Source: a virus
Taxonomy: Duplodnaviria > Heunggongvirae > Uroviricota > Caudoviricetes
Direction: 5' to 3' (one strand)
IMG/VR virus record: IMGVR_UViG_2534682108_000003
Coordinates: 1 to 33,127 of that record
Length of the DNA stretch: 33,127 bases
In this document: positions 32,122-33,127 of the stretch, in pieces
How the letters are laid out: each line of letters starts with the position of its first letter
How positions within the stretch are numbered: the first letter of the stretch is position 1
Program-made: the position numbers and the translations under genes
Notes under the pieces: model-generated
The model's input: only the letters and a program-made list of their open reading frames with translations
What the model was told of the DNA's origin: nothing
Database searches by the model: none

Positions 32122-32610
32122 CTATGCTACATGTTTAATTTTCTCTACACGTTTCCGGTTTTTAAACGCACTATCCAGAACCGGGTAAATCATAAACAAC
32201 GAGGCATTGAGGATTTCGTCAACTTCCCGTCGACAGGTTGCGAGCGATGGTTTTTGAATGCGCCCGCCGCCCCGGCATAACATCTTGCGAGGTCTTGCGA
32301 CGCGATGATAGTAAGATGCAATGGCGTGCTTGGAAGAGCCGTGGGCGTAGTAGCTGAGGAGGATGCCAAAGGCTTTCTTGTCAATGTACATGACGGAATC
32401 GACGACCTGAGAAATCAACATTCCATCATCATCATTACACATTGGCCTTGTCATAACTCTTCCCGGCTCTACGCTCTCCATGAACTTAGCTATTACGCTG
32501 CTCATGCGCTTTTCCAGACGACCTGAATAAACCCATGCGCCCCACAGTTCAAGCCAGCCATTCAGCCACTCGTGCTGTTCTTTGGTGAGGTTTAGTTCTC
32601 TTATGCCCAT
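32122..32610 (-). CDS. late-gene antiterminator Q (phage 21 / QuuD-like family)
   Basis: 162-aa ORF; WGAW and C-x-DDD motifs ([11 protein letters not shown]...[13 protein letters not shown]) resembling Q of the QuuD family; start ATG overlaps the stop of the phosphatase gene as in the lambda nin-Q junction; precedes the tRNAs and lysis cassette. Confidence 0.65.
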
Positions 32611-33038
32611 GCGCCTTCTCCCTGTACCTGAATCAATGTGAGGTTTCCGCAGAACACTGCGCCGGTATCGATATACATCTGGTTGGCAAACTTGAGTGGT
32701 TTCACTGCTGGCGTATGACCAAAGATGAACGTGTCCGCGCCTTTGATTTCTTTCACGATCCCGTCTTGTGAGTTGCTGATTCGTTCGCGGTTCCAGATTA
32801 CCTGCTGATGATCAACTGGCTTTCCAAACTCGTATTCGTCACAAGGATAATCGGCGTGGCAGATGACATATTTTTTATCTTTGCTCACCAGTTCGATGAT
32901 TAACGGAAGTTCATCTGCTTTATGGGCAAGAGCTTTAGCCAGAATTTCTTTGTCGTAATCGAGATTAAAGAACCATCCACCGCCATTAAGCATCCAGTGA
33001 TTGACGTTTCCGCGCTCTGATAAGCCATCAATCATCAT
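32601..33038 (-). CDS. Ser/Thr protein phosphatase (lambda NinI/PPase-like), C-terminal 145 aa; N-terminal part not in frame within the window
   Basis: Product [65 protein letters not shown]...[10 protein letters not shown]...[16 protein letters not shown] matches the C-terminal two thirds of lambda phosphatase from memory; an in-frame TGA lies 9 codons upstream of the first ATG, just before the GNHE motif. Confidence 0.6.
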
Positions 33039-33127
33039 TTGCTCATGGTTTCCATGTAGTGGTCAACAAAAACTGGCCACCGCTTTAGAGTTTTTCCAGT
33101 ATCGGTTTTCCGATTCATTTGGTGGCA

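Follow-up and report, generated by a model that had tools for sequence, protein, structure and literature searches.

The window, that is, the whole stretch of 33,127 nucleotides that was analysed, is the reverse complement of contig NJLL01000044.1 (assembly GCA_002466935.1), the annotated record of which (L019) is identical to it over 14,472 bases. At its right-hand edge, a remnant of the phosphatase gene ninI lies between the antiterminator gene Q and the end of an insertion sequence (IS), and the following features can be distinguished:

32122..32610, minus strand: intact Q antiterminator gene (PF06530 Phage_antitermQ, E=9e-25)
32601..33054, minus strand: 3′ portion of ninI, nt 219–672 of the 672-nt gene, comprising codons 74–223 and the TAA stop
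32601..33038, minus strand: mechanically called ORF of 145 aa (MMIDG...), which begins at an internal Met of NinI
33052..33054, minus strand: TGG, the right copy of a 3-bp target-site duplication (ninI nt 219–221), assigned by comparing both junctions
33055..33127, minus strand: terminal 73 bases of an IS911-like IS of the IS3 family, with 100% identity to IS3-family transposase ends
~33055..33090, minus strand: right terminal inverted repeat, ending ...TTGACCACTACA, at the IS end
33125..33066, minus strand: last 20 codons of the transposase orfB (PPNESENRYWKNSKAVASFC), the only part of orfB in the window
33063..33065, minus strand: TGA that terminates the transposase frame (orfB/OrfAB) of the IS, at a distance of 8 bases from its tip

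Translated from 33053 to 32604 on the minus strand, the remnant aligns with residues 74–221 of lambda phosphatase (PDB 1g5b) with 144 of 148 positions identical (E=8e-99), which confirms the close match of the C-terminal 145 aa asserted in the initial annotation. The likeness to NinI starts at GNHE, five codons 5′ of the ATG of the 145-aa ORF, and ends at 33054; this ATG is no genuine gene start. The minus-strand frame that opens at 33125 reaches the TGA at 33065..33063 and continues with CCA CTA CAT GGA AAC CAT GAG CAA ATG ATG, exactly the in-frame codons originally read there. It had been proposed to align the three upstream frames to NinI, and within the window none of them bears any resemblance to it upstream of 33054.

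Signature motifs of the PPP phosphatase family include GDXHG and GDXXDRG (PMC535813). No frame of the window contains motif I (GDXHG), nor is motif II (GDXXDRG) found in the window, and only motif III, GNH(E/D), is kept, in the form of GNHE at 33053..33042 (minus strand), directly after the IS junction. The locus has no uninterrupted ORF of ~221–223 aa with its own start, the reading frame being broken after codon 73 by the IS, and the window copy of ninI is a pseudogene or gene fragment, not a functional member of the PPP family. Taken alone, the 145-aa ORF yields no Pfam match at E<=0.01; the intact 223-aa relative scores 61.9 bits against Metallophos (PF00149). A 144-aa gene is nonetheless called at the remnant in the annotation of the source contig. 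By exact look-up, the 145-aa remnant recurs only on two short metagenome/Logan contigs with a different Q allele. Separately, we observed that two unrelated short contigs (L003 and L004) start one base before the same internal ATG of ninI.

The DNA that adjoins the remnant is foreign to ninI. By megablast, positions 33127..33050 are 100% identical (E~5e-30) to features annotated as 'IS3 family transposase' in ~450 E. coli genomes, in which this IS end occurs at up to 12 places per genome, many of them on plasmids, including pO157; in the pO157 Sakai record, the orfA of the element was labelled IS911 by its depositors. This match and that of the remnant to lambda phosphatase both lie well outside what chance would produce. 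That the TGA of the transposase falls into the ninI frame is a coincidence.

The assembly of the source genome displays only the two tips of this element (76 and 77 bases) and not the ~1.1 kb between them, and its presumed orfA/orfB layout is that of a complete copy elsewhere:

L001, 1325..2573: complete IS copy of 1249 bp, the end of which is identical to the 73 bases in the window

This copy has TG...CA tips and imperfect inverted repeats (TGTAGTGGCACACTG... and ...TTGACCACTACA), a 100-aa orfA with an HTH_Tnp_1 domain, an orfB with the rve DDE domain, and an A6G slippery site (A AAA AAG) at IS position 324, where a programmed frameshift is annotated; the transposase CDS is annotated up to 2565, and the element itself continues to 2573. 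The same terminal features are found in the source genome, with TGTAGTGGCACACTG... on contig NJLL01000029.1 and ...TTGACCACTACA in the window. Over 1246 bases, the element shares 90.9% identity with the annotated IS911 of phage Sf6, on account of which we call it IS911-like. By the ISfinder convention, two copies belong to the same IS if they share at least 95% nucleotide identity, a level that 90.9% identity to the Sf6 IS911 does not reach, and, judged by its sequence, the element is probably a distinct named relative of IS911 in ISfinder terms. In its organization, the complete copy nevertheless shares with IS911, as characterized by Chandler and colleagues, the length of ~1250 bp, the inverted repeats of ~36 bp, the 100-aa OrfA and the DDE (rve) domain, with the −1 frameshift at A AAA AAG giving rise to the OrfAB transposase (PMC2909936); it is at the nucleotide level (~91% identity) that the two differ.

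The initial annotation had pointed out that the true N-terminus is not visible in the window, which proved correct, and had named an upstream start in the same frame, in the flanking sequence, as evidence that would refute its reading. Contiguous extension cannot supply such a start: NJLL01000044.1 extends just 4 bases past the window and stops 77 bases inside the IS, which we infer to be a break of the short-read assembly at a repeat. The reciprocal junction was therefore predicted beforehand, on the premise of a simple IS3-type insertion with a 3-bp TGG duplication and read-through of the left IS end. Under this premise, the 5′ fragment should end in the codons ...GCT GTA CGT GGT GTA GTG GCA CAC TGA and encode a product of 78 aa, consisting of NinI residues 1–73 plus GVVAH and ending in ...FRAVRGVVAH. 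Exact look-up in a collection of 15 billion proteins retrieved this product verbatim as a member of cluster P0004, and four variants that assume other duplication lengths were absent from the same collection. A word-indexed homology search with the 78-aa fragment did not find it among the cluster representatives.

The ORF for this product lies at the extreme end of contig NJLL01000029.1 (L025), which belongs to the same assembly, GCA_002466935.1, as the window. There, the 78-aa ORF directly follows ninB-ninE-ninX-ninG-ninH, supplies the missing ATG, GDLHG and GDLVDRG upstream of the IS, and is succeeded by 76 bases identical to the left end of the IS; the fragment stops after five IS-encoded residues. 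An N-type antiterminator is present on this contig as well. The 78-aa product also occurs on a Logan record (assemblies of public sequencing runs). This record and the NCBI assembly represent the data of one strain only, in which alone the exact insertion was found: the junction is absent from the complete E. coli genomes and phage records searched, and an exact 38-mer across it returned nothing from the GTDB representative genomes, among which the source genome does not figure.

With both junctions at hand, the insertion can be described to the base. The left junction, on NJLL01000029.1, reads ...GCTGTACGTGG/TGTAGTGGCAC, and the right junction, in the window, ...CCACTACA/TGGAAACC, so that TGG flanks both ends of the IS. 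The nearest intact prophage, L015 (GCA_012417805.1), carries a single TGG in the allele that corresponds to position 33054 (GCTGTACG/TGGAAACC); in a wider alignment, ...GCTGTACG/TGGAAACCATGAG... of this prophage stands against ...TTGACCACTACA/TGGAAACCATGAG... of the window. The IS tip thus lies at 33055, and ninI resumes at 33054 with nt 219, which completes codon Arg73 as its third base. Over 2931 bases, L015 and the window are 99.76% identical, with the similarity stopping at the junction; the alignment runs to 33058 because four bases of the IS tip happen to match. L015 is also 99.965% identical to NJLL01000029.1 up to the junction, and when the two contigs are joined and the IS and one TGG removed, the L015 sequence is reproduced exactly across the site. 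The 5′ half of ninI shows no differences from L015 in 221 nt, and the 3′ half shows two silent differences in 454 nt, with residues 74–223 identical. Since neither half has decayed relative to the L015 allele, sequence comparison suggests that the insertion is recent.

Considered together, these observations indicate that the ninI gene of a lambdoid prophage was almost certainly inactivated by simple transposition of a ~1.25-kb IS3-family, IS911-like element. Members of the IS3 family such as IS911 move by a copy-out-paste-in route and generate short target duplications. For IS150, the target duplication is 3 bp (PMC11708052). In the present case, the IS would have inserted after ninI nucleotide 218, in codon Arg73, co-directionally with ninI and Q, duplicating the target TGG. 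The window would then hold only the right junction, with 73 IS bases followed by ninI codons 74–223 and Q, and the multi-copy nature of the element would have broken the short-read assembly such that the 5′ third of ninI ended up on a second contig; one single copy of the IS would join NJLL01000029.1 and NJLL01000044.1. The resulting ninI allele should be null, because 1.25 kb of DNA comes between two of the three metal-binding motifs on one side and GNHE with the remainder of the fold on the other.

The best surviving alternative, which we nevertheless regard as highly unlikely, is an IS-associated rearrangement, in which each half of ninI lies beside a copy of the IS while the halves are no longer adjacent, owing to an inversion or deletion between copies or to a split prophage. 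It would account for the location of the halves on different contigs and is in keeping with the multi-copy state of the IS in related genomes; rearranged copies do exist, since the copy in L001 lacks a matching 3-bp repeat in its flanks. Such non-matching flanks would normally be expected after rearrangement, however, whereas here the same TGG is found at both junctions. The orientation is also consistent, with the left IS end facing the 5′ half and the right end facing the 3′ half, and the two contigs together rebuild one colinear prophage that matches L015 at 99.8–99.97%.

A mosaic junction, produced by homologous or illegitimate recombination, had been raised in the initial annotation; an assembly chimera of an IS fragment and a prophage contig is considered together with it. 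The nin regions are indeed mosaic, and the neighbouring Q allele adjoins ninI in some phages and ninG in others. Yet the break coincides to the base with an IS terminus (...CA), and the 3-bp TGG duplication on both sides completes the signature of a transposition junction; moreover, the prediction of the reciprocal junction preceded its discovery, and the 78-aa product also occurs on a Logan record. We therefore consider the mosaic or chimeric origin exceedingly improbable. As for an error of sequencing or base calling, or a genuine small frameshift or nonsense mutation within a continuous ninI, nothing but the in-frame stop codon speaks for it, and it has practically no chance of being correct, given that no NinI-like frame precedes 33054, that the 73 upstream bases match an IS end perfectly, and that the real 5′ part is located elsewhere, joined to the other IS end. 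The earlier verdict of a frameshifted or truncated gene accordingly holds insofar as the gene is disrupted and its N-terminal metal-binding motifs are missing; there is neither a frameshift nor a miscalled base, because the bases upstream are foreign IS DNA and not out-of-frame ninI, and the TGA is the natural stop of the transposase.

The next gene downstream of the insertion is Q, the essential activator of the late genes, the ATG of which overlaps the ninI stop by 10 nt. The same overlap is seen at the intact loci L005, L006, L010 and L015, the last of which encodes a NinI of 223 aa, and the Q protein itself is widespread, being listed in 6500 blocks. A consensus scan of 33040..33070 detected no hybrid promoter formed by the TTGACC of the right inverted repeat and the ninI flank, the best −10 candidates near the junction matching by eye at only 2–3 of 6 positions, and no terminator was detected by a scan of 31600..33127. 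Plaque formation by lambda does not require ninI or, for that matter, the nin region as a whole, but a block introduced into this region can exert polarity on Q (PMC10695390). Because ninI is dispensable, the phage may still be viable, and the insertion is most likely a neutral to mildly deleterious knockout. It is very unlikely that the IS alters the prophage further, be it through polarity on Q, which would lock the prophage in, through read-out that would make Q partly independent of pR and N, or through a re-initiated C-terminal NinI fragment that might have some activity; the re-initiation site for the latter would lie 24 nt past the transposase stop.

Several other features of the window deserve mention. 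Between Q and the holin gene, it carries phage-borne tRNA-Thr(tgt) and tRNA-Asn(gtt) genes (31875..32030, minus strand), a position at which Stx and lambdoid phages often carry tRNAs. At the opposite end, two overlapping minus-strand ORFs, 2896..3249 (Arm-DNA-bind_3) and 2060..2926 (Phage_integrase), make up a split tyrosine integrase, with the frames switching around ...CAGTGGTGTGGGATAAC... near 2920, just left of tRNA-Arg(cct); the split integrase (2060..3249) is probably a frameshifted pseudogene. Beside it, outside the prophage, lie two ORFs of 198 and 290 aa (320..1976, minus strand), which had no Pfam match above threshold, only a sub-threshold match to DUF7946, and which may be cargo of a degraded island. 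After the argU-like tRNA-Arg(cct) (3424..3498, plus strand) comes an intact integrase of 397 aa (3624..4817, plus strand), which directly adjoins the tail-fibre assembly and tail-fibre genes (4902..6415, minus strand). Since this integrase abuts the tail-fibre genes after an argU-like tRNA, the prophage resides at argU, with its integrase beside the tail end of the late operon. Finally, a P63C-domain ORF (13778..14848, minus strand) within the tail-gene block and a Rha-family regulator (29548..30315, minus strand) between the lysis genes and the terminase have the appearance of moron-type insertions into the late region.

For annotation purposes, ninI::IS is the appropriate designation, denoting a pseudogene distributed over two contigs; labels such as frameshift, sequencing error or novel short phosphatase should be avoided. 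More generally, a few dozen 'odd' bases at a contig end beside a truncated gene are usually a collapsed insertion sequence. Here, the missing half of the gene came to light once the read-through product across the reciprocal junction had been predicted.

Compared with lambda NinI (orf221, PDB 1g5b), the window copy is 97% identical over residues 74–221, occupies the same site between ninH and Q, and keeps GNHE; it differs in being devoid of residues 1–73, which carry GDXHG and GDXXDRG. Two further public alleles show that ninI has been hit by insertions repeatedly: P0009 is broken after ...LLNGG and reads through an IS911-like left end, and P0005 is broken after ...IDGLS and reads through a different foreign end, which we take to be IS629/IS1203-like. 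Both are independent events at sites that differ from that in the window.

The closest parallel is gene 54/ninG::IS911 of Shigella phage Sf6, as far as the work of Casjens et al. (2004) is related in PMC5630979. As in the window prophage, an IS911-type element with TG..CA ends sits in a dispensable nin gene just upstream of Q and is flanked by a 3-bp duplication, in Sf6 of GTT on both sides and in the window prophage of TGG. The two cases differ in the gene hit (ninG in Sf6, ninI in the window prophage), in the IS tips (TGAAGTGG in Sf6 IS911, TGTAGTGG in the window prophage), and in orientation, the transposase opposing late transcription in Sf6 (PMC5630979) and being co-directional with ninI and Q in the window prophage. 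We note in passing that the mobile_element coordinates of the Sf6 IS911 (L026, AF547987.1, 32876..34124) appear to be 3 bases off the TGAAGTGG...CCACTTCA tips, with GTT/GTT flanking the true element. Sf6 is viable with IS911 in ninG and grows faster after losing the element (PMC5630979). That an IS911-type element can occupy a nin gene of a lambdoid phage is thus already known, as are both components, and the locus described here is a routine pseudogene, one more instance of an IS entering the nin region, a dispensable part of lambdoid prophages.
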